From: Desulfobacterales bacterium | GTDB lineage: Bacteria; Desulfobacterota; Desulfobacteria; Desulfobacterales; JAFDDL01 | Direction: 5' to 3' | Length of the DNA: 64,000 bases | Assembly (NCBI GenBank): GCA_040235505.1 | Contig: JBECKW010000112.1 | Span: forward strand, 3,625 to 67,624 | Shown here: piece after piece, positions 10,803 through 53,040 of the stretch | Layout of the letters: each line of letters begins with the position of its first letter | How positions within the stretch are numbered: position 1 is the stretch's first letter | Made by a program: the position numbers and the translations under genes | Notes under the pieces: model-generated | The model's database searches: none | The model's input: the letters and a program-made list of their open reading frames with translations, nothing else | What the model was told of the DNA's origin: nothing

Positions 10803-10900
10803 ACAACTCCTTTCCGGGGGAGAATTCTCCAAATTAATTGAAGAATTTTGTCGCAACCTCCAGCATAGTGTATCACAACCGAAAGCATCCTGTCATGGAT

Positions 10901-11598: not shown

Positions 11599-12210
11599 AT
11601 GAAAACATTTTTTATTGTTCTTCTTACGATATGCGTTCTCATTGCCGGGGCGGTAGTATTTGCAGTGTCGGGCACATACAATATCTCCGCAAGGGTTCCA
11701 CACCTGTCCCTCACATTTCAACTCATGGAGCTTGTTCGGGACCGTTCGGTTGCCCACCACAGTCATGAAGTAAAATTGCCCTCCTTTGACGATCCATCGC
11801 TTGCCTTGAAAGGCGTTATCCACTTTGACGAAACCTGCCGAAAATGCCATGGCGCACCGGGCATCTCCCAGGAAGAATTTGCGGAAGGATTATATCCGGC
11901 ACCGCCTTCTCTTCAATTGTCAACGACCGATATGAATCGTCAGGAGATTTATTGGATCATCGATAATGGTATCAAAATGACGGGAATGCCGGCCTTCGGG
12001 ATCAACCATAACAGTGAAGAGCTTGCCGCCATGACGGCATTTATAAAGAAGCTTCCGGAGCTTGATGCACAGCACTATGCACAATTTGTCCAACAGGCCG
12101 GGAGTGCCGATCTCGGTGAAAATCACCACCACCACGAAGAATCGGCAGGGGAAGCAGCCGAGCCTGACACCCATGAACAAACGGTAGAAGGAAATGAGCA
12201 GTCGAACTGA
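11599..12210 (+). CDS. Membrane-anchored mono-haem c-type cytochrome with His-rich C-terminal tail
   Basis: 203 aa. N-terminal hydrophobic anchor. Single CRKCHG haem motif followed by ...GIKMTGMPAFG (Met ligand region). Tail GENHHHHEES. Confidence 0.8.
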   Translation: MKTFFIVLLTICVLIAGAVVFAVSGTYNISARVPHLSLTFQLMELVRDRSVAHHSHEVKLPSFDDPSLALKGVIHFDETCRKCHGAPGISQEEFAEGLYPAPPSLQLSTTDMNRQEIYWIIDNGIKMTGMPAFGINHNSEELAAMTAFIKKLPELDAQHYAQFVQQAGSADLGENHHHHEESAGEAAEPDTHEQTVEGNEQSN

Positions 12211-13882: not shown

Positions 13883-14392
13883 TTACCACCAGTATCCGCC
13901 GCGGTGTCCATGGCCCATCCACCCCAGGGCGAGATCCGGAAACGTCTTTCGCAGGTCCAGCCGATGTTCCAGCGATTTTTGTGCAAACTCGGCCTGGAGC
14001 TTGGAAAGCTCTTTCTGCAGATTGAGCGCCGTGTCGCGGTCCGGAGTCTCCTTTTGGAGTTCCTGACGCAAGGCAAGCTCTTTTTGCTCAATTGAATTTC
14101 GAAGGTCCTGGGTGTCGTTGTAAAATTTCTTCTGGGCCGCCTGCAGTTTGGCGGAATCTTCCTTCGACAGGTTGGTTTTCCCATTCTGTGTGACACCCAC
14201 CATGCGACCGCCATATCCCATACCGTAGCCCATCATCTGACGGTGATACCCCATGCCATAACCCATCATCCCCGGGCCCATCATATATCCGCCGTTTTCG
14301 GCGCCGCTTCCGTCATTCGCCAATGCCACCGCGAAAATACCCAACGTCAGTAAAACAACGATCAAACCGATTTTGGTCTTGAAATGTTTCAT
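13883..14392 (-). CDS. Periplasmic Spy/CpxP/ZraP-family protein (heavy-metal/envelope stress)
   Basis: 169 aa. Signal peptide, then a Met/Gly/His-rich segment (GYMMGPGMMGYGMGYHRQMMGYGMGYGG), then helical LTxxQ-like repeats (LSKEDSAKLQAAQKKF, LNLQKELSKLQAEF). Confidence 0.8.
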   Translation of the reverse strand: MKHFKTKIGLIVVLLTLGIFAVALANDGSGAENGGYMMGPGMMGYGMGYHRQMMGYGMGYGGRMVGVTQNGKTNLSKEDSAKLQAAQKKFYNDTQDLRNSIEQKELALRQELQKETPDRDTALNLQKELSKLQAEFAQKSLEHRLDLRKTFPDLALGWMGHGHRGGYWW

Positions 14393-14738: not shown

Positions 14739-16874
14739 CTACCTATCTCCTGAAACGGTCAGAAGGATATTCCCTTTGTAAGTCCCGGCATTGATAGCCG
14801 TTTTTTTTCCATCGACTGTCATTGTCAAGGCTCTGCCGCCGGGTGCCGCGATCACGACCCCCTTCCCGATGGTCAAGGCGGTGAGGGTACTCTTGCCGGT
14901 CACGGTCCAGACGCAATCTGTGCCCAATGTCAGGTGAACACCATGCACGGTCTTATAGCCGTCGGGATCGATGATGAGGCTCTCAAACCCCTTTTCTTTG
15001 CACAGGGCGTTCCAGCCCTCGGCCGTCCCGCTGACGATTTTGCCGGTGAGGGAAACGCTGTTCAGGGTCAGTATCGTATCCCGCTGATAGTCCTCGCTGA
15101 GGATGTCTCCGGCCAGGGTCATATCGGTCATGTGGACCTTGACGCCGGGATATGTCTGGCCATCTGGGACCTTGATCATGAACCGGGAGTCGTTGTTGAT
15201 GAGGGTGTGAATCAGGGCGCCGGAACCCTTCGGATCCGCGATAAGCTTTACCCGGTTCAGGTTGATATCGGTGTTGCTGCTCTTGATGGCGATCACCGAA
15301 CCGGCATGATGATCGATATAGGCCTGGCGCTCCGCGGGGTATGCCAGGTGCTTATCGAGACTCAGATCCGTGGCCAGGGTGCTTTCGTGAACCGAAATCT
15401 CGGCGGAATAGAGTGGAATTTCCTCCTTGCTGTAGCCCTTGTTCGCCCAATAAGGCGGCAGGTTGACGCTGTGGATCATCAGGGCGTTCCGACCGCCGGT
15501 CACCACCGAACCGGCGTTCTTGTCGCTGTGGGCGTTTCGGTCGGATGCCGTCAGATGGGATGCCAGCGCCGTGTCAGACTCGCCGTCCGCGATGGTGCCG
15601 ACAGTGACTCTTCCGTAGGTCCCGCTGATGATACCGATTTCGGCCGAATCGATCACTGAGCCGAAAAGGTACACATTGCAGAAAAGGTCGGAATAGGTGC
15701 CGTATCCGCCTTCAAGGGTCCGCGCGGTGGTGCCGTAGGCATAAAGACCGAGTTCCTTCTGGCCCGGCGCCGTCACCATTTTGGCCGCGTCGGTGGAAAG
15801 GGCGGCCCAGTCCTTGGAGTTGACTTCGGAATTGATATAAAAGGCCTGGGATTGTCCCAGGGTCAGGGTGGTGCGGATGCTGCCCCCCACCAGAAGACCA
15901 CCAGGGTTTCCGGCCAGGGGCTGGGTCTTTATCGACGTGTCGCCGTCGATCCTGGAATTTCGCACCACCAGAACGGACTGGTCGGAATTTTGAACCGCCG
16001 AACCGCCAAGGTTGAAAATGCGGGTATTGTCGATGGTCCGGCTGCCGCTGCCCAGCTGTACGGGGTGATTATGGAGAACCCTGGGGATGAGCCCGCTTCC
16101 GTCGCTGAGGGAAAGCGCGGTGGCGATCATCCCCGCAGCGCTGTCCCGGGAGATGGTCTTGGAAAGATCCAAGCCCCCGAGGCCTTTTGTCAGGTCGTAT
16201 TGTTTGAACGCATCGGCCACCACGGAATCACCGCCGGAAACCTTTTGGACGCCCAGGGCCATCAGAAGCATTCGGGCCACATCATAGCCGGTGACAGATT
16301 GATCCGGAGAAGCCGCCTTTTTCAGCAGCTCCTTTCCGACACAATAGGCAACAGGATCTTTTGGCGCATCCCCCTTGACCAACAGTGTGGCTCCCGCCAC
16401 CGCCTTTGCCAACTCGCCAAGGGTCAGATTCTTTTCCTGACAGAAGGCCGGGGCGCCCCCACTGCCGGCACAGGCGTCCATCAGTCCGAAATCATACACG
16501 GTGATGACGGCATCCTTGTTTTTCACGGAATCGAAGTCTGCAAGCTGCGACTCGGCGGCGCTGACCACCGGTTCGGCCGACATGGCCTCCGCCCCGATAT
16601 TGACATCACCTGGACCGCCGGGACCACCCGGCCCACCGGGGCCGCCCCCCGGACCGCCGGCACCTCCGGGGGCTCCCATACCACCAGGGCCCCCGGGAGC
16701 GCCCTGGCCGGGCGTCTCGCTGGCCGCCAGGACCAGGTTGCCGTTGCCTGAAGTTGTAAACATTCCGCTGTCGTTCAGAGTGTTCTGCGCGGCAAAAGCC
16801 CCCAAAGGCAGAAACAGCACAAACGAGGCGGCGGCAGCAATGGAAGTACTGAAGAATCTTCTCTTTAAGACCAT
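14739..16874 (-). CDS. Secreted 711-aa protein of unknown function with Gly/Pro-rich linker and beta-helix-like C-terminal region
   Basis: Signal peptide (FLPLGAFAAQN). GP tract at aa 55-89. The remainder is rich in short G/N/T-containing beta-strand-like repeats. No catalytic motif recognised. Confidence 0.75.
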   Translation of the reverse strand: MVLKRRFFSTSIAAAASFVLFLPLGAFAAQNTLNDSGMFTTSGNGNLVLAASETPGQGAPGGPGGMGAPGGAGGPGGGPGGPGGPGGPGDVNIGAEAMSAEPVVSAAESQLADFDSVKNKDAVITVYDFGLMDACAGSGGAPAFCQEKNLTLGELAKAVAGATLLVKGDAPKDPVAYCVGKELLKKAASPDQSVTGYDVARMLLMALGVQKVSGGDSVVADAFKQYDLTKGLGGLDLSKTISRDSAAGMIATALSLSDGSGLIPRVLHNHPVQLGSGSRTIDNTRIFNLGGSAVQNSDQSVLVVRNSRIDGDTSIKTQPLAGNPGGLLVGGSIRTTLTLGQSQAFYINSEVNSKDWAALSTDAAKMVTAPGQKELGLYAYGTTARTLEGGYGTYSDLFCNVYLFGSVIDSAEIGIISGTYGRVTVGTIADGESDTALASHLTASDRNAHSDKNAGSVVTGGRNALMIHSVNLPPYWANKGYSKEEIPLYSAEISVHESTLATDLSLDKHLAYPAERQAYIDHHAGSVIAIKSSNTDINLNRVKLIADPKGSGALIHTLINNDSRFMIKVPDGQTYPGVKVHMTDMTLAGDILSEDYQRDTILTLNSVSLTGKIVSGTAEGWNALCKEKGFESLIIDPDGYKTVHGVHLTLGTDCVWTVTGKSTLTALTIGKGVVIAAPGGRALTMTVDGKKTAINAGTYKGNILLTVSGDR

Positions 16875-18779: not shown

Positions 18780-20006
18780 ATGATGAAACTGATTCGATCG
18801 TTTATGGGAAGACGGCAATTTCTTTTTTCCGCGGGGGCTGCCTCCGCGTCGGCGCTTTTCGTTAAAAAGCTTGCCGGACTGCTGGATCCGTTTTCTAAAC
18901 CGGGCGTTGCAGAGGCCGCCATCAAAAAGAACGACACCAAATGCGTGGTCGTCTATTCATCGATGACGGGAAATACCGAAAAGGCTGCTCGGGCAATCCA
19001 AAAAGGGTTGGCGGAAGCCTCGGGCGCCTGCGACATCTTCTCCGTCAAGGATGCCGACCCGCACAAGCTGGCGGGCTATGACTTCATCGCCTTCGGGTAT
19101 CCCCTGATGGGACCGGCACTGAAGCTGGACGTCGATACGTTTCTGACCAATCTTCGATACGTGGGCGGGCTGCACATCGTTCTGTTTTCCACCAGCGACT
19201 CTGCGAGCAACAATCACGCCAAATGCCTTCCACTGCTTAAAAAACACGGCCTTATCACCCTTGGCTCCAGGAGCTGGCATGGGGCCGTCTACGGTCCGCT
19301 GGGCGATCCGACCCCGGGCCGGGGAGATGGACATCCCGACAAGACGGATCTTGCGGACGCCGCCAACTGGGCCAAGGAAAAGTGGGAACTGAGCAAGAAA
19401 ATCTATGCCGGTGATACCAGCCTGATTCCTGCGGCGCCTACCCAGACCGGTGAACGTGGTAAGGATGGCGGGCCTGGAGGCCCCCCCGGTGGGACTGGCG
19501 GAGCCCCCGGAGCAGCGGGCGGAGCGGCCGGTGGCCCACCGGCTGGCGCACCCGGCGGCGCCGGAGGCCGACAGGGCGGCATCCCCGAAGAATTGGTCGG
19601 CCTTGAAAACGACACACCCGAACAGCTAAAAAAACGCATCCATTTCGAGCTTGTCTATAACAAGGACAAATGCATGTTTCCCACGTGTACCCGATGCATG
19701 GATATCTGTCCGGTCAACGGCATCGATTATACGGTGGAGCCCCGCGTCTACGGCGATCCCTGCATGATGTGCGCCATGTGCGACCAGGTCTGCCCCACCG
19801 GCGCCATCTATGTCGACCCGAAGCACATGGAATGGCAGCGGCGAGTCGAGGGCTACGCGGATAACGTGGTACAGGTTTACCAGGCATATCCGAAACACCC
19901 CCGCTTCATCGTCGGCTACGGCCGCCCCTATGGGTACGATCCGTATACCAAGGAAGACCGGGGGGATGGGTCAAAGATGGGGATCGATAAAAAGCAGGAG
20001 TCGTAG
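18780..20006 (+). CDS. Tat-signal flavodoxin / 2x[4Fe-4S] ferredoxin fusion protein with Gly/Pro-rich linker
   Basis: Start at ATGATG after GGAGGG. Twin-arginine leader MMKLIRSFMGRRQFLFSAGAASASA. Flavodoxin signature VVYSSMTGNTE. GP tract at nt 19455-19580. C-terminal CTRCMDICP and CMMCAMCDQVCP. Confidence 0.85.
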   Translation: MMKLIRSFMGRRQFLFSAGAASASALFVKKLAGLLDPFSKPGVAEAAIKKNDTKCVVVYSSMTGNTEKAARAIQKGLAEASGACDIFSVKDADPHKLAGYDFIAFGYPLMGPALKLDVDTFLTNLRYVGGLHIVLFSTSDSASNNHAKCLPLLKKHGLITLGSRSWHGAVYGPLGDPTPGRGDGHPDKTDLADAANWAKEKWELSKKIYAGDTSLIPAAPTQTGERGKDGGPGGPPGGTGGAPGAAGGAAGGPPAGAPGGAGGRQGGIPEELVGLENDTPEQLKKRIHFELVYNKDKCMFPTCTRCMDICPVNGIDYTVEPRVYGDPCMMCAMCDQVCPTGAIYVDPKHMEWQRRVEGYADNVVQVYQAYPKHPRFIVGYGRPYGYDPYTKEDRGDGSKMGIDKKQES

Positions 20007-20260: not shown

Positions 20261-20374
20261 TGCAGAGCCCCCTTAATCCCTCCACCACTTAATCACCTAA
20301 ATCCACCTTGATTATCTTGATTCCAGCGCGTAAAAATAAAGGTGAACTCTTTTGACAAAAAGGAGGACCTACCC

Positions 20375-21112
20375 ATGGGGAACATGTCTGCTTTATTTTT
20401 GTCGGCTCTGATGATGGTTTCGGCTTCGGCGGAGGCTGCCGGTTCTTACCGGACGGATATCATCAAAACATCCGCTGGAGAATTGAACATCACTTTCATC
20501 GGTCACGGATCACTGATGCTCACCTTCGGCTCGACGGTGATTCATGTGGACCCATATTCCAAGGTCGCCGACTACTCGATCTTCCCGAAGGCCGATATTA
20601 TTCTGCTCACCCACGATCACCCTGATCACCTGGACCTGAGCGCCCTGAACCTCGTTCGCACCGACCACAGCCGGGTGGTCATGACCGAGACCTGTGCCCA
20701 GCAGCTTCAAGGCGGCATCATCTTAAAAAACGGCGATGTTCGAACCATCGACGGATTTACCGTCGAAGCGGTTCCGGCCTACAACCTGGTCCATAAGCGG
20801 GATAACGGACAGCCCTTTCATCCCAAGGGCGTTGGCAACGGGTACATTCTTACCTTCGGCGACAAGCGGGTGTATATCGCGGGGGACACGGAAAACACGC
20901 CGGAGATGAAATCACTTCAAAACATCGACATCGCCTTCCTGCCCATGAATTTGCCCTATACCATGACCCCCGAAATGGTGGCCGATGCGGCCCGGGCGTT
21001 TCAGCCGAAAATTCTATACCCCTATCATTTCGGTGACACGGATACTTCTCGTCTGGTGAAACTGCTGGAAGATCAACCGGGGATCGAGGTCAGAATTCGG
21101 AATATGAGTTGA
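20375..21112 (+). CDS. Secreted MBL-fold metallo-hydrolase
   Basis: ATG after AGGAGG. Sec-type leader MGNMSALFLSALMMVSASAEAAG. LLTHDHPDHLD metal-binding motif. Confidence 0.85.
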   Translation: MGNMSALFLSALMMVSASAEAAGSYRTDIIKTSAGELNITFIGHGSLMLTFGSTVIHVDPYSKVADYSIFPKADIILLTHDHPDHLDLSALNLVRTDHSRVVMTETCAQQLQGGIILKNGDVRTIDGFTVEAVPAYNLVHKRDNGQPFHPKGVGNGYILTFGDKRVYIAGDTENTPEMKSLQNIDIAFLPMNLPYTMTPEMVADAARAFQPKILYPYHFGDTDTSRLVKLLEDQPGIEVRIRNMS

Positions 21113-21174: not shown

Positions 21175-23202
21175 TTACACCTCAGAGGCCGAATAAAAGG
21201 CGCTACGGATGCTCTTCTGGATATTGCCACCCATATCACTGCAGTCGCCGATGGCAAAGAATTGCTTGGCGGTGCCGTAAAACTTCAACGCCTCGTCCTT
21301 TCTCGGCTTGAATCCCGCATAGATCACCACACTGTCGGCCTTGAGCGATTTTTCAGTCCCCCCTGCATCTTTGTATGTGACCTTTCCGGAAGAAATTCCC
21401 GTCGGGACCGCCTCGGTGATAACGAGGAAGTTCTTCAGATCCTCGTAGGTCTGGATAATCGTTTCGGGATAGTGGGGGCGGTTGTTCGGAAAGAGCTCCT
21501 TGCCCGCGGTCACCATCGTTACGTTATGACCTGCGTTGGCAAGATACATCCCCACATCCGCTCCGAATTCTCCGCCGCCTATAAATACTACGTTCTTCCC
21601 CATGGATTTTTCGTTGCTGTAGGCCTCGACAATGTTATAGACCCCTTTGCCGTCGGCGCCCGGAATGCGAGGCACGACGGGGTCGGAACCCACTGCGACC
21701 AGGATTGTGTCGTAGCCCCCGGCTCGAATCATCTCGGGGGTGGCCTCGGTTTTCAGAAGTACTTCTACACCGGCTTTGCCCATCTGGTGAGCCAGAAAAT
21801 TTTTGAAACCTTTGATGGCCCACTTGTAGGGGGAATAATCCGCATGCCGGGCAAGCCCGCCCAGGACCTCGCTCTTTTCGTAAAGGGTGACCCTGTGGCC
21901 CCGTTCCGCTGCCGTCAGAGCCGCCTTCATCCCTGCAGGCCCCCCACCAACCACCGCCACCTTCTTTGAAGCGCCGGGGGGACGGATCGATTTCACGGCC
22001 GCCGGAATTCCGACTTTGGGGTTTACGGAGCACACCGTGTACCAGGGCCCCTTGAACATGTCCTCCCCGTGGCACTTGTTGCACCGGATGCAGGGCGTGA
22101 CATCTTCGCCCCGGCCGGCTGCCATCTTTTGGCCATATTCCCAGTCGCAAATAAAGGCACGGGCCAGGGTGAACATATCCGATTTTCCGTCTTTGAGATA
22201 GCCTTCCATCAGATCCAGATCCTGGAAGCCGCCGCCGGGGGCCACGATGACCTTGGTGCCGCTTTTCTTAATTGCCTGGGCATAGTGAATGGCATAGGGA
22301 TCGCTCTTATTCGAATTCCAGGTGGTGGCGTGGGCGGCCGAGGCGTCGGCGATTCTCACCATGGCGATATCCGCCTTTCCCTCCAGTTTTTTTGCATAGG
22401 CAATAGCCTCGTCGACGGTGCCCCCGGCCTTGTAGTAGTTGTCTTCTTTATGCTGGGTGATGGACGGCTCCCGGACAAAAATCTCGGTAATGGTCAGCAT
22501 GTCCGGTACGGCTGCCTTGACCGCTTCGCATGCCGCCAAGGTCATCTTTTCATTTCCCCGGGCGACAATCTGAATCGCGTCGAAGCCGTGTGATTCATAA
22601 AACTTTGCTTCGGTAACGACATTTTCGAGTATTTTTTGATTATTTTCTTCTGAGTCTTCAGATTGGGTCCCTGGCATACCGGGCATTCTCATCCCCGCCA
22701 TGACGCCGGCACATGCCTTGGAGCCGTAAATATGAATGCCTTCAATCATCTGGTCCATGTAATTCAGGACTCCGGCGTCCTCCAGATCGTAGATCACCAT
22801 GTGAGCGCTGTCGCCCTTTAGGTCTTTACGGACCCGGTTGGACATAATGCGCACGGAGATAATCCCTGCCCCGTTTTTGGCCATGTTCACGTAGTAGTCG
22901 CGCATCACCTCGGCTGGAAAGTTTTCGGGCCCCTGAAGAAAATGCGGCGTGGATTGGGGGGCCAGGAACCGGTTCTTCAACACCTGGTTTCCAATCTTTA
23001 AGGGCGAAAGAAGATGGCTGTAGCGGTCGCTTACCATCTTCAGATCAACCCCTCCCGGGGTTTCGGATGCCCTTGCGCTTTCCGGCTGCAGCGCCGGGGT
23101 TCCACTTGCAATGAATTTCCCGAGAGCCAGTGCCGAGGCAGATCCCACACCCGCGGCGGTCAGGAACTGCCGTCTTCCCATCAAAGATCTAATCAGTTTC
23201 AT
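21175..23202 (-). CDS. Tat-signal OYE / 2,4-dienoyl-CoA-reductase-like FMN + [4Fe-4S] + FAD/NAD(P)-fold oxidoreductase
   Basis: 675 aa. Leader MKLIRSLMGRRQFLTAAGVGSASALA. OYE-type N-domain (LKIGNQVLKNRFLAPQS). CIRCNKC...C cluster motif. VAVVGGGPAGMKAA and a second dinucleotide-fold motif (VFIGGGEFG). Confidence 0.9.
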   Translation of the reverse strand: MKLIRSLMGRRQFLTAAGVGSASALALGKFIASGTPALQPESARASETPGGVDLKMVSDRYSHLLSPLKIGNQVLKNRFLAPQSTPHFLQGPENFPAEVMRDYYVNMAKNGAGIISVRIMSNRVRKDLKGDSAHMVIYDLEDAGVLNYMDQMIEGIHIYGSKACAGVMAGMRMPGMPGTQSEDSEENNQKILENVVTEAKFYESHGFDAIQIVARGNEKMTLAACEAVKAAVPDMLTITEIFVREPSITQHKEDNYYKAGGTVDEAIAYAKKLEGKADIAMVRIADASAAHATTWNSNKSDPYAIHYAQAIKKSGTKVIVAPGGGFQDLDLMEGYLKDGKSDMFTLARAFICDWEYGQKMAAGRGEDVTPCIRCNKCHGEDMFKGPWYTVCSVNPKVGIPAAVKSIRPPGASKKVAVVGGGPAGMKAALTAAERGHRVTLYEKSEVLGGLARHADYSPYKWAIKGFKNFLAHQMGKAGVEVLLKTEATPEMIRAGGYDTILVAVGSDPVVPRIPGADGKGVYNIVEAYSNEKSMGKNVVFIGGGEFGADVGMYLANAGHNVTMVTAGKELFPNNRPHYPETIIQTYEDLKNFLVITEAVPTGISSGKVTYKDAGGTEKSLKADSVVIYAGFKPRKDEALKFYGTAKQFFAIGDCSDMGGNIQKSIRSAFYSASEV

Positions 23203-23567
23203 TGATTCCCCCCCTTTTTTTCTGTCGGAAATTAAGATTAAGCTACGAATATGTCTGCGACTTCATCTTTAATTCATATTTGTTTTATTTTTCATAAAAT
23301 TTAATCTTTAGTTATGATTTGGTGTGTGATGGGAATTATATACAGCCTGCCCAATTGAAAGGTAAACAGCTATCTCATTTTTTTACGCTTTTTTACGTTT
23401 TTCGCCGATTCCGTTCCGGTCACCGCAAAGGTTTCAGCTCCAAAGTCCAGAGCTGGAATCGTAAGTATGGCTTTCAATCTCTAAATTAATTGGCTGTTCC
23501 GAGGATTGAAATTTGAACTAAAGCAAAGATTGGCCAAACCGGGTCGTTTTGAAATTGGCTCTCCAGT

Positions 23568-25837: not shown

Positions 25838-27454
25838 ATGATGCAGAAAAAAGCGCATGTGAAACAACTTGCTGTATGGACGGCCGCTGCCATAATGATC
25901 TTTTTTGCCGCGGAAGCCGTCGCTTCCGTGGATACATCGACTGCCGACGAGCAGCCGCGGGCCGACATGATCACGATCGACGGCATGAAGACATTCGGTC
26001 CCCTGGAAAGAGCTTCGGTTGAATTTCTGCATGACAAGCACACGGAAACCTTGAAGAAAGACGGAAAGGACTGCCTCGCCTGTCATATCCAGGATAAAAC
26101 CTCGGGAAAGCTGAGCATCAAGTTTCAGCGTACCGAGGACAAGGACCGGCAGACCGTCATGGACACCTACCACAAGGGATGCATCTCATGCCATAACGAG
26201 CTGCTTTCCGAGGGAAAATCCAGCGGGCCGGTGGAATGTGCCGAATGCCATAACGACAAGACCAAGGCGACCTCCAACTGGCAGGAAATCGGCATGGACC
26301 ATTCCCTTCACTATCGCCATACCAAAGCCCTGGATAAAAAATGCGAAACCTGCCATCACGAATATGACCAGACCACCAAAAAGCTTGTCTATGTAAAAGG
26401 TGAGGAAGGCACCTGCCGGTATTGCCATAAAGAACAGACCGAAGACAACCGAATCGCGATGCGGCAGGCCGCCCATATCGACTGTGTCAATTGCCACCGT
26501 ACCCGCATTGCTCAAAACAAATCCGCGGGCCCGGTTGAGTGTGCCGGATGTCATGATCCGAAGCATCAGGCGGCGATCGAAAAAATAGCGGACGTTCCCC
26601 GGATGGAAATGAAGCAACCGGACACCGTTTTTGTAAAGGCACAACCGGCGGATGCCACGGATACAGAGGCCATCCGGATGAAGCAGGTGCCCTTCGACCA
26701 CAAAGCCCACGAAACTTACAACGATACATGCCGTGCCTGTCACCATGCAAGCATGAAGGGAAATTTGACGGGCTGTACCGACTGCCACACGCTCAAGGGT
26801 GAAAAAGAGGGCGATTGGGTGAGCCTTGAAGAGGCCATGCACCGGAGCAAGGCGGGCGAAAGCTGTGAGGGTTGCCACAAGGAGAAACAGACGGCAAAAG
26901 AGTGCGCCGGATGCCACGGTTCCATGGTCCAGACGGCAACGAAATCGCCGACCTATTGCAATACCTGTCACCTGGTACCGTTGGTCGAAAAAACTGAAGG
27001 CGAAACGACACCGGCTGCTGCCGAAACGGAACCGGTTACGACCGAAACGGCTGCCGATGCCCTGGCGGCCAGGGTACCTACCCTGGAAACCTATCCGGTG
27101 GAGGATATCCCTGAGACGGTAACCATCAAGTCCCTGTCCGAAACTTACCAGCCGGTGGAACTGCCCCACCGGAAGATCGTGCTGACCCTGCTGAAGGGAA
27201 TCCAGGGCAGCAAGCTGGCGCAATATTTCCATACGCAGCCCGGTACGCTCTGCCAGGGATGCCATCACAACAGCCCGGCGGCCGTCAAACCGCCCAAGTG
27301 CGAATCGTGTCATGGCAAGGCGTTTCAGAACGACCAGCCATACCGGCCGGGGCTCAAGGCGGCGTATCATCAGGAGTGCATGGGATGTCACAAACAAATG
27401 AATATCGAAAAACCGGCCAGCCGGGACTGTGTCGCTTGCCATAAGAAAAAGTAG
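25838..27454 (+). CDS. hmcA: High-molecular-weight 16-haem cytochrome c
   Basis: 538 aa. Signal peptide. I count 16 CxxCH motifs (CLACH, CISCH, CAECH, CETCH, CRYCH, CVNCH, CAGCH, CRACH, CTDCH, CEGCH, CAGCH, CNTCH, CQGCH, CESCH, CMGCH, CVACH). Confidence 0.95.
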   Translation: MMQKKAHVKQLAVWTAAAIMIFFAAEAVASVDTSTADEQPRADMITIDGMKTFGPLERASVEFLHDKHTETLKKDGKDCLACHIQDKTSGKLSIKFQRTEDKDRQTVMDTYHKGCISCHNELLSEGKSSGPVECAECHNDKTKATSNWQEIGMDHSLHYRHTKALDKKCETCHHEYDQTTKKLVYVKGEEGTCRYCHKEQTEDNRIAMRQAAHIDCVNCHRTRIAQNKSAGPVECAGCHDPKHQAAIEKIADVPRMEMKQPDTVFVKAQPADATDTEAIRMKQVPFDHKAHETYNDTCRACHHASMKGNLTGCTDCHTLKGEKEGDWVSLEEAMHRSKAGESCEGCHKEKQTAKECAGCHGSMVQTATKSPTYCNTCHLVPLVEKTEGETTPAAAETEPVTTETAADALAARVPTLETYPVEDIPETVTIKSLSETYQPVELPHRKIVLTLLKGIQGSKLAQYFHTQPGTLCQGCHHNSPAAVKPPKCESCHGKAFQNDQPYRPGLKAAYHQECMGCHKQMNIEKPASRDCVACHKKK

Positions 27455-27497
27455 CGTATTGCGTTAATTCCCGACTCGAATATTTGAGGTGTCATCA

Positions 27498-28634
27498 ATG
27501 AGTATTTCACGGAGAAAGTTTTTAGGATGGATGGGAGCCGCCGGTGCCGCGACCATGGTGGGAAAAACGGCAACCGCCTCGACCAACAAGGAATTCCCCG
27601 GATACCCCGGGAGCCACGGCGTCCTGTATGACGCCACGCGCTGCGTCGGCTGCCGACGTTGCGAAGAGGGATGCAACAAGGTCAACGAGCTGCCGGCTCC
27701 GGACCGGCCGTTCGAGGACCTTTCGGTGCTGGATGAAAAACGCCGCACGGATGCCACCCACTTCACCGTGGTGAATGAGTACAAAAAAACCGGCGGGGAA
27801 GCCGGGCCGGTGTTCCGGAAAATTCAGTGCAACCACTGCCTGGAGCCCGCCTGCGCCAATGTCTGCTTCGTCAAGGCGTTCACGAAAACCGAAACCGGCG
27901 CGGTGGTCTACAACCCGAATGTCTGTGTGGGATGCCGTTACTGCATGATCGCCTGCCCCTTTGAAATCCCGGCCTACGAGTACAACGAGCCGCTGACGCC
28001 CCGGGTCCGCAAATGCACCATGTGCTACCCGAGAATCGTAAAGGGACAGCTTCCGGGTTGCGTGGAGGCCTGCCCCATGGAGGCGCTGACCTTCGGAACA
28101 CGCGAGGATCTTCTGAAAATCGCCCGGGACCGGATCGAGAACTATCCGGATCGCTATATTGATCATATTTACGGAGAACGGGAAATGGGCGGCACAAGCT
28201 GGCTCTATATCTCCGGAGTTCCTTTCAAAGAAATCGGCCTTCGGGAGGATCTCGGCACCAAGCCCGCACCGGAATTCACGCTCGGTGCACTCAGTGGCGT
28301 GCCCATGGTGATCGGTCTGTGGCCGGTTCTTCTGACCGGTATTTATGCGATAAACAAACGCAAGGAAAAAATCGCTGCAAAAGAACAATCCGAAGCTGTA
28401 ACCGCCGCAGTGGACGCCGCCAATGATGACGCCACCCAAAAACTTTCCGCATCACTGGAAAAGGCGGAAAAAGACAAGACCTCGGCCATCGACAAGGCCG
28501 TGAAAAAAGCCCTTGAAGAAGCGGAAAAAGCCCGCGCCGAGGAGGAAGCGGCCAAAGCTCAGGCCGAGGCCCCGGAGAGTGCACAAGCACCTGAAGAAGA
28601 TTCCGAGAAAGATACACCACAGGAGGATGCCTGA
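27498..28634 (+). CDS. hmcB: Hmc complex periplasmic 4x[4Fe-4S] ferredoxin subunit with Tat leader and C-terminal anchor
   Basis: [18 protein letters not shown] leader after [42 protein letters not shown]...C motifs. TM helix, then a long Ala/Glu/Lys-rich tail. Confidence 0.9.
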
Positions 28635-29806
28635 TGTCTCGCGATACCAAAACCAACGGCAAGCCGCTCTTGACGCCGTTTAACCTCGTTGCCGGAATTA
28701 TTCTGATTATCGGCGCCGTCGTGACCTTTCTGCGGTTCACCCGGGGTCTGGGGCCGGTGACCAACCTGTCGAACTATAACCCCTGGGGAATCTGGATCGG
28801 GTTCGACCTGCTGGTTGGGGTAGCGCTCGCGGCCGGGGGATTTGTCACCTCTGCGGCCTGCTATATTTTCGGCATGAAAAAATTCCATTCGGCCGTTCGA
28901 CCCGCGATCCTCACCGGCTTCCTCGGCTACGCCATGGTGGTGCTCGCCCTGAACTACGATGTCGGCCGGCCCTGGCGCTTGCCCTACCCCTTCATCGTCT
29001 CCCAGGGAACCACCTCCATGCTCTTCGAAGTGGGTGCCTGCGTGGCCCTGTACCTCACGGTGCTGTTTCTTGAGTTCTCACCGGCGGCGCTGGAATGGCT
29101 GGGGTTGAAAAAACTTCGGAATGTCCTGCATTCGGTGACGCTGGTGCTGACCATTTTAGGGGTGATTCTCTCGACGCTGCATCAGTCATCCCTGGGAGCA
29201 CTCTTCTTGATCGCACCATCAAAATTGCACCCACTATGGTACTCGTCCTATCTGCCCATCTATTTCTTCATTTCAGCCGTCATCGCCGGGCTTTCCATGG
29301 TAATTTTCGAGGGCACCCTTTCACATCACTACTTTGAAGACAAGATGGATAAAACCCATATGGAAGAAAAGGATGGGGTGGTGCTGGGGTTCGGCAAGGC
29401 GGCTTCCTGGGTGCTGGCCGGATACTTCATCATCAAGGTTATCGGGATTGCGGTAGACAACAACTGGCATTATCTTGCCACCGGCTACGGTGCCTGGTAC
29501 CTGGTGGAGATTTTGGGGTTTGTGGCCCTGCCCTGCTTCCTGTATGCCATTGGCACCCGGGAAAAGAACCTCACCCTCATTAAATGGACTGCGGCCTGGA
29601 CCGTGCTGGGCATCATGGTGAACCGCCTGAACGTTTCGCTCATTGCCTTCAACTGGCAACTGCCTTCAAGTGAGCGGTATTTCCCCAGTTGGATGGAGAT
29701 TTCCATCACGCTTTTCGTTATCACCATCGGGATACTGGTGTTTCGTTTCATCGTCACCCGCATGCCGATTTTTTACGAACATCCCGAATACGGCGATTCA
29801 CACTAG
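28634..29806 (+). CDS. hmcC: Hmc complex NrfD/PsrC-like integral membrane subunit
   Basis: 390 aa, polytopic. TGATG overlap with hmcB. Size and position match HmcC. Confidence 0.9.
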   Translation: MSRDTKTNGKPLLTPFNLVAGIILIIGAVVTFLRFTRGLGPVTNLSNYNPWGIWIGFDLLVGVALAAGGFVTSAACYIFGMKKFHSAVRPAILTGFLGYAMVVLALNYDVGRPWRLPYPFIVSQGTTSMLFEVGACVALYLTVLFLEFSPAALEWLGLKKLRNVLHSVTLVLTILGVILSTLHQSSLGALFLIAPSKLHPLWYSSYLPIYFFISAVIAGLSMVIFEGTLSHHYFEDKMDKTHMEEKDGVVLGFGKAASWVLAGYFIIKVIGIAVDNNWHYLATGYGAWYLVEILGFVALPCFLYAIGTREKNLTLIKWTAAWTVLGIMVNRLNVSLIAFNWQLPSSERYFPSWMEISITLFVITIGILVFRFIVTRMPIFYEHPEYGDSH

Positions 29807-29818
29807 AGGAGGCCTGTC

Positions 29819-29950
29819 ATGCACGGGATTTATTACACGCTTCAGCAATTTCTGACCCACGCCAAGGGGGTCACCTACATCATCATGGTGCTGGCACTGC
29901 TTGCCTTTCTGGGGTTCTGGCGGTTTCTGGCAGGAAACGACGAAGACTAA
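29819..29950 (+). CDS. hmcD: Hmc complex small single-TM subunit (43 aa)
   Basis: Not in the track. ATG after AGAGGAGG. MHGIYYTLQQFLTHAKGVTYIIMVLALLAFLGFWRFLAGNDED*. Lies exactly in the hmcC-hmcE gap where HmcD sits in Desulfovibrio. Confidence 0.6.
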   Translation: MHGIYYTLQQFLTHAKGVTYIIMVLALLAFLGFWRFLAGNDED

Positions 29951-29965
29951 AGGAGAGAAACAGCC

Positions 29966-30643
29966 ATGTATGAATTTGTCACCGGCCCATTGGCATGGTT
30001 TGCCTTTGCCGTCTTTTTCATCGGAATTCTTTACCGGATTGTCTGGTATTTCCGGGGCCTCGACTGGCAGGCCGACCGGGTTGCCTACACCGAGCATGCA
30101 GCTTACGGACTGCGGGGAGCCATCCGGTCCATCGTGTACTGGATCGTTCCCTTCGGAAGCCACAGCTGGCGTTTTTATAAGGGGACGACCGTCCTGGTGT
30201 TCGCCTTCCATATCGGACTTCTCTTCACCCCGATTTTCCTGCGGGCGCACAATGTGCTGCTTTTCGAGAAATGGGGCGTGCACCTCTGGTCCATGCCAGA
30301 AGGGCTTGCGGATGTGTTGACGGTGGTGGTGATGGTGGCGGCCCTGTTTTTACTGCTTCGCCGAATCGCCTACCCCCAGATCCGGATCCTCACGAACCTG
30401 TATGACTATCTGCTGCTGGTGATCGCAGTGGCGCCTTTTGTAACGGGGTTTCTGGCCCATCATCAGGTGGGGAACTACAATTTCTGGCTGATTGCCCATA
30501 TTCTCTGCGGGGAGTTGTGGCTGGTGGCCGTACCGCTGACGAAGCTCTCCCACTTTATTCTATTTTTCCTGTCCCGCGCCCAGATCGGCATGGATTTCGG
30601 CATCAAACGCGGCGGCATGAAAAACAAGGGGATGGTCTGGTAA
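29966..30643 (+). CDS. hmcE: Hmc complex b-type cytochrome membrane subunit (NarI/DsrM/HdrE-like)
   Basis: 225 aa, about 5-6 TM helices with conserved His residues. RBS AAAGGAGAG. Confidence 0.85.
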   Translation: MYEFVTGPLAWFAFAVFFIGILYRIVWYFRGLDWQADRVAYTEHAAYGLRGAIRSIVYWIVPFGSHSWRFYKGTTVLVFAFHIGLLFTPIFLRAHNVLLFEKWGVHLWSMPEGLADVLTVVVMVAALFLLLRRIAYPQIRILTNLYDYLLLVIAVAPFVTGFLAHHQVGNYNFWLIAHILCGELWLVAVPLTKLSHFILFFLSRAQIGMDFGIKRGGMKNKGMVW

Positions 30644-30677
30644 CTATTAACCGCCATAGACAGGATGGAAACGTAAA

Positions 30678-32066
30678 ATGCCTGAAGGAATACTCTGCAA
30701 CAAAAAGCCGGTAACGACCAAGGAAATGCTGGATGCGCTTTTGGCCGACAAGAGCGGAAAACAGTATTACGAAGAGATGAAACAGCTGGATGTGGACCAG
30801 AAGGCCCTGTGGGCCGCCATCCAGAAGAGCCTGAAATCCCGGACCAAGACCTGGCTCGAAATCTGCGCCCACTGCGGCATGTGTGCCGACAGCTGCTTTT
30901 TCTACCTGGCCAACAACAAGGACCCCAAGCAGGTACCCTCCTACAAGATCCAGTCGACCCTCGGTGAATTGGTCCGGCGAAAAGGAAAAGTGGACAACGA
31001 GTTCATGATCAAGGTCATGGACACGGCCTGGGGAAAATGCACCTGCTGCAACCGGTGCGGCCTGTATTGCCCCTTCGGCATCGACATGGGCGTCATGTTC
31101 AGCTATCTGCGGGGCCTCTGCTATTCCCAGGGATTCGTGCCGTGGGAGATGAAAATAGGTGCCGGCATGCACCGGATCTACCGGGCCCAGATGGACATCA
31201 CCACCGAGGACTGGGTGGAGACCTGCGAGTGGATGGCCGAGGAGTACGAGGAGGATTGGCCGGGGCTCGAGATTCCGGTGGACAAGGAGGACGCGGACAT
31301 CATCTACACGGTCAACGCCCGGGAACCCAAGCATTATCCCGAGGATCTGGCCGAAGCGGCGATCCTGTTTCACCTGGCGGGCGAAAACTGGACCGTGCCC
31401 AGCGAAGGGTGGGAGGAAACCAGCCTGGCCATGTTTGCCGGCGACTGGGAGGCCTGCAAGATTCAGGTACAATCGGTCTATGATGCCATCGACCGGCTCA
31501 AGCCAAAGAAAATGGTGGTCACCGAGTGCGGCCATGCCTACCGCGCCACGGTCATCGAAGGCCCCTATTGGGCCGGGCTCAAAACCGGCCGCACACCGGT
31601 GGAGAGCTTCCACTACGTGGAATGGGTGGCGGAAATGCTTCGCACCGGACGTATCAAGATCGACCCGGCCAAGAAAATCAAGGAGCCCGTCACCTACCAG
31701 GATTCCTGTAACTACATCCGGAACGCCGGCCTCAAGGAAGCCGCCCGGGAAATCATGAGTTACATTGCCGAAGACTTCCGGGAGATGAAACCCTGCAAGG
31801 AGCACAACTTCTGTTGCGGCGGTGGCGGCGGCATGAACGGCGTCGGCCGGTACCGGACGCAGCGAAACATCGGCCTCCAGGTCAAGCGGGATCAGATCCT
31901 TGCCACCGGGGCAAAACTGGTCATCAGTCCTTGCCACAACTGCTGGGACGCCATCCGGGATCTTGAGGAAGTCTATAAAATCGGCATTCGCTGGTCCTTC
32001 CTGAAACCGCTTCTGATCGAAATGGCCATCGTGCCGGATCATCTGAAACCACCGGAGGACGAATAG
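30678..32066 (+). CDS. hmcF: Hmc complex cytoplasmic Fe-S subunit (HdrD/DsrK-like, CCG domains)
   Basis: 462 aa. [11 protein letters not shown] and [10 protein letters not shown] ferredoxin-like motifs. CNY...CCGGGGG CCG-type motif. Confidence 0.9.
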
Positions 32067-47374: not shown

Positions 47375-47403
47375 GCCGAGAATCCTTTCAGCAGATTCTC
47401 GGC
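47375..47403 (-). other. 10-bp hairpin spanning the hypE stop codon
   Basis: GCCGAGAATC-9 nt-GATTCTCGGC. One arm encodes the HypE C-terminal PRIC. No U-tract. It is followed by the RBS of the MscS gene. Confidence 0.5.
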
Positions 47404-48428
47404 AGTTGATCCCCGGCCGGCATTGAAACGATGCGCGTGCCACCGATTCGGGTTCTCAGATGGACCTTGCCGGGGTGATCGGAGCGCACCTCTCCGATGA
47501 TTTGCGCTTCCACTCCCAGGGGATCGGAACGCAGGTCTGCAAGGATTTTTTCAGCCGCCGGCCTGGCCGCAAACGCCAGGAGTTTTCCCTCGTTTGCCAC
47601 ATACAGCGGATCGATCCCCAGAAGCTCGCACAACCCTGCCACCGCGGGTTTTATCGGCAGATTCTCTTCAAAAATATCGATGCCGACGTTCGAGCGTTCC
47701 GAAATTTCGCACAGCGCCGTCCCCACACCGCCCCGGGTGGGATCCCGAAGCACATGGATATCTTTACGGTTACCTTTATGGTTATCTTTGCCGGCTGCCA
47801 GCAGTTTCTGCGTCAGCCGGTGAAGCGGTGCCGTATCACTCGTAATGCCATGAGAAAAAGACAGCTTCTCCCGCTCGTTTAAGATGGTCATGCCGTGGTC
47901 CGCCATGGAGCCGCTTAAAATAACGACGTCCCCGGGCCGGGCCCCGTCGGCCGAAACATGAACATGATCCGGAATCCGTCCGATCCCCGATGTGTTGATG
48001 AATATCTTGTCCGCGGCCCCCCGGGGAACGACCTTTGTGTCCCCGGTGACAATCAGCACGCCGGCGGCTTTCGCCGCACGCTTCATGCTGGAAAGTATCC
48101 GGGACAAATCCGACATGTTAAATCCTTCTTCCATGATGAGCCCAACGCTCAGATAAAGCGGCAGAGCCCCGCACATGGCAAGATCGTTGACGGTGCCGTT
48201 TACCGCCAGGTCGCCGATATCTCCGCCCGGAAAGAAAATCGGGTCCACCACGAAAGAATCCGTGGAAAAGGCGAGCCGCACGCCGTCCACTTCCAGCGCG
48301 GCCCCGTCATCCAGTTTCGACAGAATGGGATTGTCGAAAGCAGGCAGCAGGAGCTTCGATATCAGTTCACCGGAAATTCTTCCACCGCTGCCATGGTCCA
48401 GACGGATTATATCGTTTTGGCCGGTCAT
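47388..48428 (-). CDS. hypE: Hydrogenase maturation protein HypE
   Basis: Start MTGQNDIIRLDHGSGG after GGAGGAAAG. AIR-synthase-like fold. C-terminal PRIC signature. Confidence 0.95.
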   Translation of the reverse strand: MTGQNDIIRLDHGSGGRISGELISKLLLPAFDNPILSKLDDGAALEVDGVRLAFSTDSFVVDPIFFPGGDIGDLAVNGTVNDLAMCGALPLYLSVGLIMEEGFNMSDLSRILSSMKRAAKAAGVLIVTGDTKVVPRGAADKIFINTSGIGRIPDHVHVSADGARPGDVVILSGSMADHGMTILNEREKLSFSHGITSDTAPLHRLTQKLLAAGKDNHKGNRKDIHVLRDPTRGGVGTALCEISERSNVGIDIFEENLPIKPAVAGLCELLGIDPLYVANEGKLLAFAARPAAEKILADLRSDPLGVEAQIIGEVRSDHPGKVHLRTRIGGTRIVSMPAGDQLPRIC

Positions 48429-48471
48429 TTCTTCTTTCCTCCGCTCTTCCGATCTTCTCAACGTCTCTCGT

Positions 48472-49566: not shown

Positions 49567-49582
49567 TTTCCCATCCGCTTCC

Positions 49583-51883: not shown

Positions 51884-52125
51884 CGCGTTTTCTTCCCGGC
51901 CCCCTCATCGGAGATCGCCGCCGCCTCCCTGAGCAGCGACAGAGACTCCTTTGCGGCCGCTTCATCTAGAATCTGAATGGCAAATCCAGCATGAACAATC
52001 ACGTAATCACCCACCGATGCGTCGGAGACCAGTACCAGGCTTGCCTCCCGGCGAACGCCGTCCACGTCGACAACGGCCGTCTTCCGGTCAATGGAAACAA
52101 TTTTTGAAGGAATGGCGATGCACAT
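51880..52125 (-). CDS. hypC: Hydrogenase assembly chaperone HypC/HupF
   Basis: 81 aa. Starts MCIAIPSKIV (essential Cys2). 4-nt overlap with hypF. Confidence 0.9.
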   Translation of the reverse strand: MCIAIPSKIVSIDRKTAVVDVDGVRREASLVLVSDASVGDYVIVHAGFAIQILDEAAAKESLSLLREAAAISDEGAGKKTR

Positions 52126-52268
52126 GACAAAAAGTCCTTATGAGCCGTGGATGGCGAAAATCATACCAACAAAAAAGAAGGCCGTCGAGCCAATTTCAAT
52201 GGACTGGTTCAAAACATTTTGAGCTTGGCTCCGTCGAAAAATACTTCAATGAAAGAACCGGATGAGGA

Positions 52269-53039: not shown

Positions 53040-53040
53040 A

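Follow-up and report, generated by a model that had tools for sequence, protein, structure and literature searches.

A clade of iron-sulfur flavoenzymes of the old yellow enzyme type with twin-arginine leaders, probably NAD(P)H-independent, and a neighbouring flavodoxin-ferredoxin with the same kind of leader

A 64,000-nucleotide stretch of a Desulfobacterales genome (assembly GCA_040235505.1, contig JBECKW010000112.1, positions 3,625 to 67,624; referred to as the window) carries a gene for a three-domain flavoenzyme whose product begins with a twin-arginine translocation (Tat) leader. The enzyme belongs to the iron-sulfur flavoenzyme branch of the old yellow enzymes (OYE), as its gene, cofactor motifs and fold show, and is of the type of 2-enoate reductase (2-ER), DCR (2,4-dienoyl-CoA reductase; FadH in E. 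coli) and the type III aryl-CoA reductase NCR (2-naphthoyl-CoA reductase). A partner gene for a flavodoxin-ferredoxin fusion lies 1.2 kb away on the opposite strand. The enzyme is very probably exported by Tat, and we consider it reasonably likely that it works independently of NAD(P)H with the flavodoxin-ferredoxin as its redox mate. The two genes are:

21175..23202, minus strand: coding sequence of the three-domain Fe-S flavoenzyme of 2-enoate reductase/DCR/NCR type, 675 aa.
18783..20006, plus strand: partner gene, 407 aa, with a Tat leader, a short-chain flavodoxin and a 2x[4Fe-4S] ferredoxin (Pfam, NCBIfam, alignment, AlphaFold2, PDB match).

The N-terminus of the enzyme reads MKLIRSLMGRRQFLTAAGVGSASALALGKFIASG, and a strong Shine-Dalgarno sequence, AAAAAAGGGGGGGAATCA, precedes the first ATG, at 23202. 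The features of this region are:

23203..23225, minus strand: ribosome-binding site AAAGGGGGGG, 5' of the ATG of the OYE-type gene; a GGAGG counterpart stands 5' of the partner gene.
23068..23202, minus strand: twin-arginine leader, residues 1-45 (conservation, leader profile, Tat models; predicted local distance difference test score, pLDDT, of the AlphaFold2 model below 50 at residues 1-52).

The leader is composed of an n-region (MKLIRSLMG), the R10-R11-Q-F-L motif, a moderately hydrophobic h-region at residues 13-28 and a c-region ending in A43-R-A45, with cleavage predicted before S46. The Tat motif appears as G-R10-R11-Q-F13-L14-T, with Gly or Lys instead of Ser or Thr at the -1 position. 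R10, R11 and F13 are invariant in an alignment of 69 sequences, in which M1, Q12, L14, S21, A24, L25, A43 and A45 are conserved at 90% or more. A43-x-A45 constitutes a signal-peptidase I site, about 15 variable residues ahead of the barrel start at Y61.HLLSPLKIGN. The leader consensus, M.LI.SLMGRRQFL.AAG..S.SALA, recurs in 111 of the 120 closest clusters at 90% identity (47-74% identical to the window enzyme); of the nine others, eight have their start inside the leader region or beyond it, most of them being of reduced length (437-664 aa), and the ninth, P0099, lacks a leader. Conservation of this kind, among sequences with an overall identity of only ∼50%, indicates a genuine leader maintained by strong purifying selection. 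The twin-arginine leader had been pointed out in an earlier note made from the letters of the window, which allowed that the true start might lie downstream. The leader holds up and the reservation does not: the Shine-Dalgarno sequence stands at the first ATG, and a downstream start is not supported because no internal Met is conserved among the closest relatives. The leader is no artefact of a wrongly placed start codon.

A profile built from 88 OYE leaders was run on six-frame translations of 84 loci and the window, where it found nothing beyond the OYE family and the flavodoxin-ferredoxin family. Leaders of the partner family scored 30-91 bits and other Tat leaders at the same loci (HmcB, FAD_binding_2 reductases, an amidohydrolase and P0138) 0-14 bits. 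A protein search with the 48-residue leader alone, seeking other cargo families, returned two short fragments and nothing more.

The distribution of the leader was assessed with an exhaustive phmmer search over 1.84 billion representatives, which yielded 12,993 relatives, 2,003 of them at E <= 1e-30. Among the best 150 representatives at 50% identity, this leader was seen in ten and another Tat leader in one (P0138); wherever else the N-terminus is complete, the sequence begins directly at M..(K/R)Y.HLLSPLKIGN. In a neighbour-joining tree on the mature part, 60 of 61 dereplicated leader sequences fall in a single clade, which also takes in two sequences truncated at the N-terminus, another with a variant leader (L059) and a further two that truly lack one. 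Since the tree groups these sequences and places P0138 outside, the leader appears to have been gained essentially once, with one further independent gain. P0138 (759 aa), with the Tat leader LSRRKFLTGTGGVSAALAVAS, keeps Glu at position 565 and looks like an independent acquisition of export. The survey of twin-arginine leaders that the earlier note had proposed thus picks out essentially one clade, with sister clades that begin at the barrel. This leader clade is large: clustering at 90% identity gives at least 111 clusters, and at 50% about ten. The relatives come from sediment, mangrove and other environmental metagenomes and are labelled, where a taxon is given, as Deltaproteobacteria or Acidobacteriota; taxonomic breadth rests on these source labels, and a scan of genome contigs with a single protein gave one locus, in an Acidobacteriota metagenome-assembled genome. 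Neither proteomic data nor an RNA-seq run with the gene was found, and the DNA runs with the gene were sediment and mangrove metagenomes.

Domain searches, structure prediction and alignment gave a consistent picture of the mature enzyme. Its features, all on the minus strand, are:

22123..23031, minus strand: divergent OYE-like TIM barrel, approximately residues 58-360, presumed to bind flavin mononucleotide (FMN) and substrate (Pfam, AlphaFold2, Foldseek, alignment).
22549..22578, minus strand: shortened beta4-alpha4 loop, residues 209-218, IQIVARGNEK (alignment).
22030..22092, minus strand: [4Fe-4S] motif C371-x2-C374-x2-C377-x13-C391, its four cysteines invariant.
21874..21960, minus strand: first Rossmann motif, for flavin adenine dinucleotide (FAD), G419-x-G421-x-x-G424 ... 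E442, invariant in 160 leader-bearing and 152 leaderless sequences.
21820..21822, minus strand: W461, aligned with NCR W459 (sequence alignment to NCR).
21562..21588, minus strand: second glycine-rich loop, VFIG542-G-G544-E-F-G547 (sequence conservation).
21499..21510, minus strand: beta2 end of the second Rossmann fold, T565-A-G-K568, without the Glu or Arg that marks leaderless relatives.

Pfam Pyr_redox_2 matched residues 413-638 with 94 bits, and Oxidored_FMN gave a weak and partial match of 38 bits at residues 64-169 alone. All NCBIfam matches were sub-threshold: long-form bilirubin reductase (bili_reduct_long, NF045599; 246.5 bits against a cut-off of 750), mycofactocin OYE_2, and BaiCD (NF041087; 209 bits against 825). 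By sequence, the nearest solved proteins were NCR (6qkg, 3.7e-50) and then E. coli FadH (1ps9, 6e-33), with histamine and trimethylamine dehydrogenases at 1e-15 to 1e-19. The AlphaFold2 model, built from 69 sequences, had a pLDDT of 86.5 with low confidence at residues 1-52 and 173-182 only, and Foldseek matched it to full-length NCR 6qkg (TM 0.78), followed by DCR 1ps9, histamine dehydrogenase 3k30, HisD and trimethylamine dehydrogenase (TMADH) 2tmd. These fold matches, together with the domain hits and the four-cysteine motif, confirm the three-domain enzyme of OYE/DCR type described in the earlier note, with the TIM barrel, four-cysteine linker and two Rossmann domains of the 2-ER/DCR architecture. 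The two motifs quoted there are residues 415-443 (VAVVGGGPAGMKAALTAAERGHRVTLYEK) and 539-547 (VFIGGGEFG), so both glycine-rich loops are kept. The FAD site is intact, with G419, G421, G424 and E442 unchanged in all 312 sequences. Promoter and terminator scans gave matches no more numerous than in shuffled sequence.

The second Rossmann domain is where the leader clade departs from its relatives. At the beta2 end the clade consensus is Thr-Ser-Glu/Gly-Lys/Arg (T-A-G-K in the window enzyme), and in 157 of 160 leader-clade sequences position 565 is not acidic and position 566 not basic. An acidic 565 or a basic 566 is present in 144 of 152 leaderless relatives, either as Leu-Glu-Met (acidic, NADH-like; 75 of 152) or as Leu-Thr-Arg-Gln/Arg (basic, NADPH-like; 69 of 152). 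The beta2 end of FadH, as read from the L005 sequence, would be ...VMLQRK and basic; this comparison for NADPH relies on the end-of-beta2 signature and the NCR paper. The glycine-rich loop itself persists in the clade (G542 in 153, G544 in 149 and G547 in 138 of 160). Overall, the leader clade appears to have retained the second fold and lost the nicotinamide-specificity signature. The Trp at 461 is present in 159 of 160 leader sequences and invariant in the 69-sequence alignment.

Precedents for such a domain exist. According to the NCR paper, NCR has no NADPH site; its W459 (DCR has F424 here) is reported to displace the isoalloxazine of FAD and thereby to block the site, and NCR is presumed to receive its electrons from a ferredoxin. 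In TMADH and histamine dehydrogenase, the dinucleotide folds persist without NAD(P)H, ADP takes the place of FAD and the electron acceptor is a protein. The domains thus persist in these three enzymes as electron-entry or electron-exit modules, and because they do, a retained fold in an exported enzyme is not paradoxical. The earlier note had seen a paradox here, offering either a repurposed site or a membrane-associated protein as its solution, and had named full conservation of the NADPH-binding residues, together with evidence of a cytoplasmic location, as grounds for giving the idea up. The paradox largely dissolves with the precedents, and the residues that mark an NADH- or NADPH-type site in leaderless relatives are not kept, the 565/566 signature being absent in 157 of 160 leader sequences. 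Repurposing is favoured by this loss, by the NCR precedent with W461 and by the donor candidate next door. We infer loss of NAD(P)H use from sequence and precedent together. The note's interpretation is supported as to the leader and both glycine loops; of its two options repurposing is favoured and membrane association is not. It did not see the partner gene, the paralogue arrays or the loss of the canonical OYE catalytic loop.

That loop is a second respect in which most of the leader clade differs from its relatives. From beta4 to alpha4, FadH and the leaderless relatives have ∼45 residues, which in FadH read ...MGSEGYLINEFLTLRTNQRSDQWGG... and include the proton donor Tyr166; ∼25-30 residues with the catalytic E-G-Y/NxRTDxYGG segment are missing from the window enzyme. 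The span 206-227 is 15-29 residues long in 126 of 160 leader sequences, the window enzyme included, and at least 35 residues long in FadH and in 147 of 152 leaderless relatives (at least 40 in 146). The enzyme accordingly does not have the canonical OYE active-site loop, the Y166 proton donor of DCR and the NxRTDxYGG segment being deleted, and because the loop is missing the classical mechanism of hydride plus a Tyr proton should not be assumed. The active-site pocket is likely to be more open. Outside the cytoplasm no CoA thioesters are to be expected, and as export would place the enzyme in the periplasm, its substrate is presumably not a CoA ester. Elsewhere in the barrel, a low-complexity insert rich in Gly, Pro, Gln and Met occupies a loop at residues 171-182 (22657-22692, minus strand) and is much longer in P0122, P0123 and P0131; similar inserts occur in the partner's interdomain linker (∼19440-19590, plus strand) and at the N-terminus of a neighbouring 711-aa protein, described below.

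The partner protein consists, in order, of the homologous Tat leader, a flavodoxin domain with a TGNTE FMN loop, a Gly/Pro linker, two CxxCxxCxxxCP-type motifs and a conserved tail. Its leader is located as follows:

18783..18917, plus strand: partner leader, MKLIRSFMGRRQFLFSAGAASASALF...A43-E-A45 (alignment, leader profile).

The FMN loop, S60-M-T62-G63-N64-T65-E66, is conserved and the domain has Pfam and PDB flavodoxin matches; C297, C302, C305 and C309, and C327, C330, C333 and C337, are invariant, and the loop and the two cluster motifs together mark the protein as a flavodoxin-ferredoxin fusion. NCBIfam NF038196 (EFR1) matched below threshold (62.8 against a cut-off of 75) and flavodox_BilS weakly. 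Thirteen of the first 14 residues are identical between the partner and OYE leaders, and the first 42 coding nucleotides of the two genes (18783-18824, plus strand, and 23161-23202, minus strand) are ∼88% identical, synonymous positions included, after which the sequences diverge. This points to a recent gene conversion or else to selection acting on the n-region, perhaps as a chaperone-binding site. Both genes have a GGAGG/GGGGG ribosome-binding site. About 35 homologues of the partner have the same leader type, including A43-x-A45, and five of ∼333 aa start at MKCVVIYFS and are leaderless. The C-terminal tail of the family, YPKHPRFIVGYGRPYGYDPYTKEDRG (19830-20006, plus strand), is very conserved in leader-bearing and leaderless forms alike, and it could be a docking element.

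The partner gene adjoins leader-OYE genes in the window and on at least four more contigs (L002, L010, L011 and L052). L002 is the locus of the closest homologue (74% identical), with the partner gene on the same strand; at L010 the gap is 10 nt, with three paralogues following it, and on a JGI contig two OYE-family genes flank a partner gene. Two partner homologues sit elsewhere, one of them next to genes for a [NiFe] hydrogenase and a cytochrome c, and no OYE gene adjoins the leaderless flavodoxin-ferredoxin homologue. It is reasonable to suppose that one shuttle could serve many paralogues.

Reading function from sequence, fold and gene context, we propose the following scheme. The enzyme would fold in the cytoplasm, where it would be loaded with FMN, [4Fe-4S] and FAD, and its 45-residue leader would direct Tat export and be cut after A43-x-A45. 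In the periplasm it would make no use of NAD(P)H and would take electrons from the co-exported flavodoxin-ferredoxin (18783-20006), which may dock on the surface of the two Rossmann domains at the FAD/second-Rossmann face, the site proposed for NCR. Electrons would then pass from FAD through [4Fe-4S] to FMN and reduce a periplasmic non-CoA substrate in the remodelled, more open barrel site. The partner would thus be the electron donor to the enzyme; candidates for what reduces the partner in turn are a periplasmic hydrogenase, cytochrome c or membrane complexes. The reductive direction on its own seems somewhat more probable than the reverse, and to the complete picture of a soluble, periplasmic, NAD(P)H-independent reductase fed by the co-exported flavodoxin-ferredoxin we give about even weight.

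Several observations weigh against this scheme. The curated Tat models fell just under their cut-offs on the enzyme's leader (TIGR01409, 15.0 against 16.7; PF10518, 16.0 against 22.7); the HmcB-like Tat Fe-S subunit of the window (27489-28634) is sub-threshold too, at 21.1. Only 5 of 35 leader loci have a partner gene at a distance of 7 kb or less, and none was found near the Acidobacteriota homologue. The AlphaFold2 model of the partner is good in the flavodoxin domain and poor in the ferredoxin domain. W461 occurs in 112 of 152 leaderless relatives as well, whose beta2 signatures look NAD(P)H-competent, and for this reason it does not serve by itself to mark the loss of NAD(P)H use. The traits of the leader clade also amount phylogenetically to one event, so the counts given for them are not independent. 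Finally, G544 is commoner in the leader clade (149 of 160) than in leaderless relatives (87 of 152), and K/R568, which could bind phosphate, is conserved in the clade. The conservation of the second loop suggests that a pyrophosphate-bearing ligand may still bind there.

Such a ligand could be a fixed, non-exchanging nucleotide (ADP, NAD(P) or similar) that is loaded into the second Rossmann pocket before export and serves a structural or redox-tuning role, an arrangement compatible with the proposed scheme. The three loop glycines are 86-96% conserved in the leader clade, above the leaderless relatives; K/R568, H577 and other residues of the pocket region are conserved with them; and ADP in a vestigial dinucleotide site is known from TMADH and histamine dehydrogenase. 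The TMADH precedent, however, concerns the first (FAD) site and not the second, the second site of NCR is empty and blocked, and some leader-clade representatives carry Arg, Asp or Lys at 544. We regard a fixed nucleotide as rather unlikely.

The same parts could also run in the opposite direction, as a periplasmic dehydrogenase that oxidises an organic substrate and passes electrons via Fe-S and FAD to the flavodoxin-ferredoxin, cytochromes and Hmc-type complexes, and on to cytoplasmic sulfate reduction. Two enzymes of this fold, TMADH and histamine dehydrogenase, hand their electrons to a protein, the proton-donor loop of canonical ene-reductases is missing, the window holds an Hmc-like complex and a c-type cytochrome, and there is the partner homologue beside the hydrogenase and cytochrome c gene. 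Yet the protein is far closer to NCR, DCR, BaiCD and BilR (1e-50, 1e-33) than to the amine dehydrogenases (1e-15 to 1e-19), and it keeps a complete FAD site where TMADH and histamine dehydrogenase bind ADP alone. The paralogues in tandem and the Tat FAD_binding_2 reductases encoded alongside are moreover reminiscent of arsenals of respiratory reductases. A dehydrogenase thus seems improbable, and a reductase remains the preferred reading.

The remaining alternatives concern the leader. As an uncleaved signal-anchor, it would tether the enzyme to the outer face of the membrane; a model of the Rieske PetC transmembrane anchor gave a weak match (14 bits), and AlphaFold2 placed a helix at residues 2-26 with low confidence. 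The h-region, FLTAAGVGSASALALG, is nevertheless only ∼16 residues long and rich in Ala, Gly and Ser, with a mean Kyte-Doolittle hydropathy of 1.5 (K29 already falls in the c-region), a composition that appears typical of cleavable Tat signals and less so of anchors. A43-x-A45, conserved at 90% or more, and the variable ∼15-residue spacer ahead of the barrel argue likewise for a leader that would be cleaved after A45. A membrane-associated protein, the second option in the earlier note, is for these reasons not favoured, and we consider an anchor distinctly unlikely. A conventional enoate or dienoyl-CoA reductase of the cytoplasm, dependent on NAD(P)H and with the twin-arginine segment as a mis-called start or a non-functional relic, would agree with the intact GxGxxG loops and with public annotations that name relatives '2,4-dienoyl-CoA reductase-like NADH-dependent reductase'. 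It is very hard to reconcile with a Shine-Dalgarno sequence at the first ATG and no conserved downstream start, purifying selection on the leader among ∼50%-identical sequences, loss of both the NAD(P)H-discriminating residues and the DCR catalytic Tyr loop, and neighbours that are exported proteins. Targeting to a compartment, such as by a microcompartment encapsulation helix, can practically be set aside: the n-region has amphipathic spacing (L3, I4, L7, M8, F13, L14) and the peptide is common to two functionally linked proteins, but RR-x-F-L, h-region and AxA make a complete Tat signal, neighbours have Sec and Tat signals, and no microcompartment shell homologue was found in the window and 84 loci (a weak test, made with a PduA query).

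The neighbourhoods of leader-bearing and leaderless genes were compared. Tandem arrays are common, with two or three family members in 15 of 35 leader loci. Directly upstream of leader genes lie small Sec-signal SnoaL/DUF4440-like proteins of NTF2 fold, or SnoaL_4 genes, at L020, L024, L025 and L028 and on the JGI contigs of P0021, P0029 and P0053. The NTF2-fold dehydratase BaiE pairs with BaiCD/BaiH-type reductases, a pairing that the SnoaL-like neighbours recall. Leader loci also hold Tat-leader FAD_binding_2 reductases with small Fe-S subunits, TonB-dependent receptors and a recurrent exported protein of ∼500-800 aa with no assigned family, and one holds ApbE, FMN_bind and a NapH/NosR-like Fer4_5 membrane protein. 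In the window, a 711-aa protein (14739-16874, minus strand) has a Sec-type signal and a Gly/Pro-rich stretch and gave no Pfam or PDB match; its homologues lie beside OYE-family genes at L002, L015 (between two leader paralogues), L021 and L079, and also at two leaderless loci, L027 and L055. Leaderless loci carry LysR regulators and MFS and TRAP transporters. Anecdotally, the contrast fits access to periplasmic substrates in the leader clade and to cytoplasmic ones in its sisters.

Two further features of the window lie close to the OYE-type gene:

20342..21112, plus strand: metallo-beta-lactamase-fold protein with a Sec-type signal, between the two genes (Pfam); its membership of the system is uncertain.
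25838..32066, plus strand: Hmc-like transmembrane redox complex, 2.6 kb from the OYE gene (contextual gene content).

On one JGI contig, too, paralogues have a Lactamase_B gene between them, and no homologue of the window's metallo-beta-lactamase-fold gene was present in the comparison loci with DNA sequence. The Hmc-like complex comprises a multihaem cytochrome c (538 aa) and Tat-leader 4Fe-4S, NrfD-type, NarI-like and HdrD-like CCG subunits. Further along are hyp genes (47388-53279, minus strand) for a HypE-like AIR-synthase family protein, HypD, HypF and a HypB/CobW-like GTPase. Since hydrogenase-maturation genes are in the window, the organism would make [NiFe] hydrogenases, and the complex, the c-type cytochrome and the hyp genes together imply that Tat export and periplasmic electron chains are available to it. 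Upstream of the studied region are a copper/heavy-metal P-type ATPase with YHS and HMA domains (7953-10856, minus strand), a periplasmic Metal_resist protein (13883-14392, minus strand) and a monohaem cytochrome c (11599-12210, plus strand).

Enzymes of OYE/dienoyl-CoA-reductase type are otherwise treated as cytoplasmic and NAD(P)H-linked. Full-text literature searches that paired Tat with OYE, with enoate reductase or with dienoyl-CoA reductase gave nothing of relevance, nor was a published description of such a leader-bearing clade found; a family-wide analysis of the 2-ER subfamily from 2025 does not mention signal peptides. What is new here would be a leader-bearing, probably NAD(P)H-independent clade of Fe-S OYE enzymes with a dedicated exported flavodoxin-ferredoxin partner, and the automatic name "NADH-dependent 2,4-dienoyl-CoA reductase" for genes of the clade is probably wrong. 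If this is true, it adds a new enzyme class to the periplasmic electron-acceptor metabolism of anoxic sediments, a natural case of an NAD(P)H module turned into a protein-docking module, a low-potential flavodoxin at work outside the cytoplasm, and NAD(P)H-independent, ene-reductase-like catalysts with open active sites.

Among known systems, NCR (6QKG) is like the window enzyme in its three domains, its FMN, [4Fe-4S] and FAD, its second alpha/beta domain and the Trp at the blocking position. It is unlike it in being cytoplasmic and leaderless with a CoA-thioester substrate, in its degenerate glycine loop (GGNEIS, compared with the canonical GGGEFG) and in keeping Glu at the beta2 end; the two are ∼23% identical over the whole protein, and the barrel of the window enzyme is without the beta4-alpha4 loop. 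FadH (1ps9) shares the architecture, the four-cysteine motif and the FAD motif, but it is cytoplasmic and NADPH-dependent, has Phe424 where the window enzyme has Trp, and possesses the catalytic E164-G-Y166 loop that is deleted here. TMADH (2TMD) and histamine dehydrogenase (3K30) share the fold and deliver electrons to a protein partner; they differ in their oxidative direction, ADP for FAD, an electron-transferring flavoprotein as partner, the want of a leader and weaker similarity.

The bilirubin reductase BilR and the bile-acid enzyme BaiCD are the best NCBIfam matches, and the bilR-bilS pair joins an OYE-type reductase gene to a flavodoxin-like gene much as here, although BilR and BilS are described without signal peptides and BilS has no ferredoxin domain. 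A survey of exported respiratory reductases covered flavin and molybdopterin families only; by its reasoning, members of a normally cytosolic reductase superfamily are put to respiratory use when they carry a signal peptide. The FAD_binding_2 and molybdopterin arsenals resemble the leader clade in this signal-peptide logic and in having many paralogues per genome, and genes for Tat FAD_binding_2, ApbE, FMN_bind and NapH/NosR-like proteins adjoin homologues of the OYE-type gene. They differ in superfamily, OYE/2-ER lying outside the survey, and the carrier here is an exported flavodoxin-ferredoxin. A tentative reading, which we would call possible but somewhat short of likely, is that the Fe-S OYE branch forms a third superfamily of extracytoplasmic respiratory reductases beside the FAD_binding_2 flavin and molybdopterin ones, devoted to NAD(P)H-free respiration or detoxification of unsaturated organics. 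Sediment Desulfobacterota and Acidobacteriota would then export diversified OYE arrays with a dedicated flavodoxin-ferredoxin shuttle, which would be the first exported flavodoxin, and the common leader would perhaps be read by a common chaperone. The flavocytochrome c sulfide dehydrogenases FccB and SoxF are Tat-exported periplasmic flavoproteins with two dinucleotide-binding domains, the second of which works without NAD(P)H; unlike the window enzyme, they have no OYE barrel and no Fe-S cluster, and they oxidise sulfide with a cytochrome c partner.

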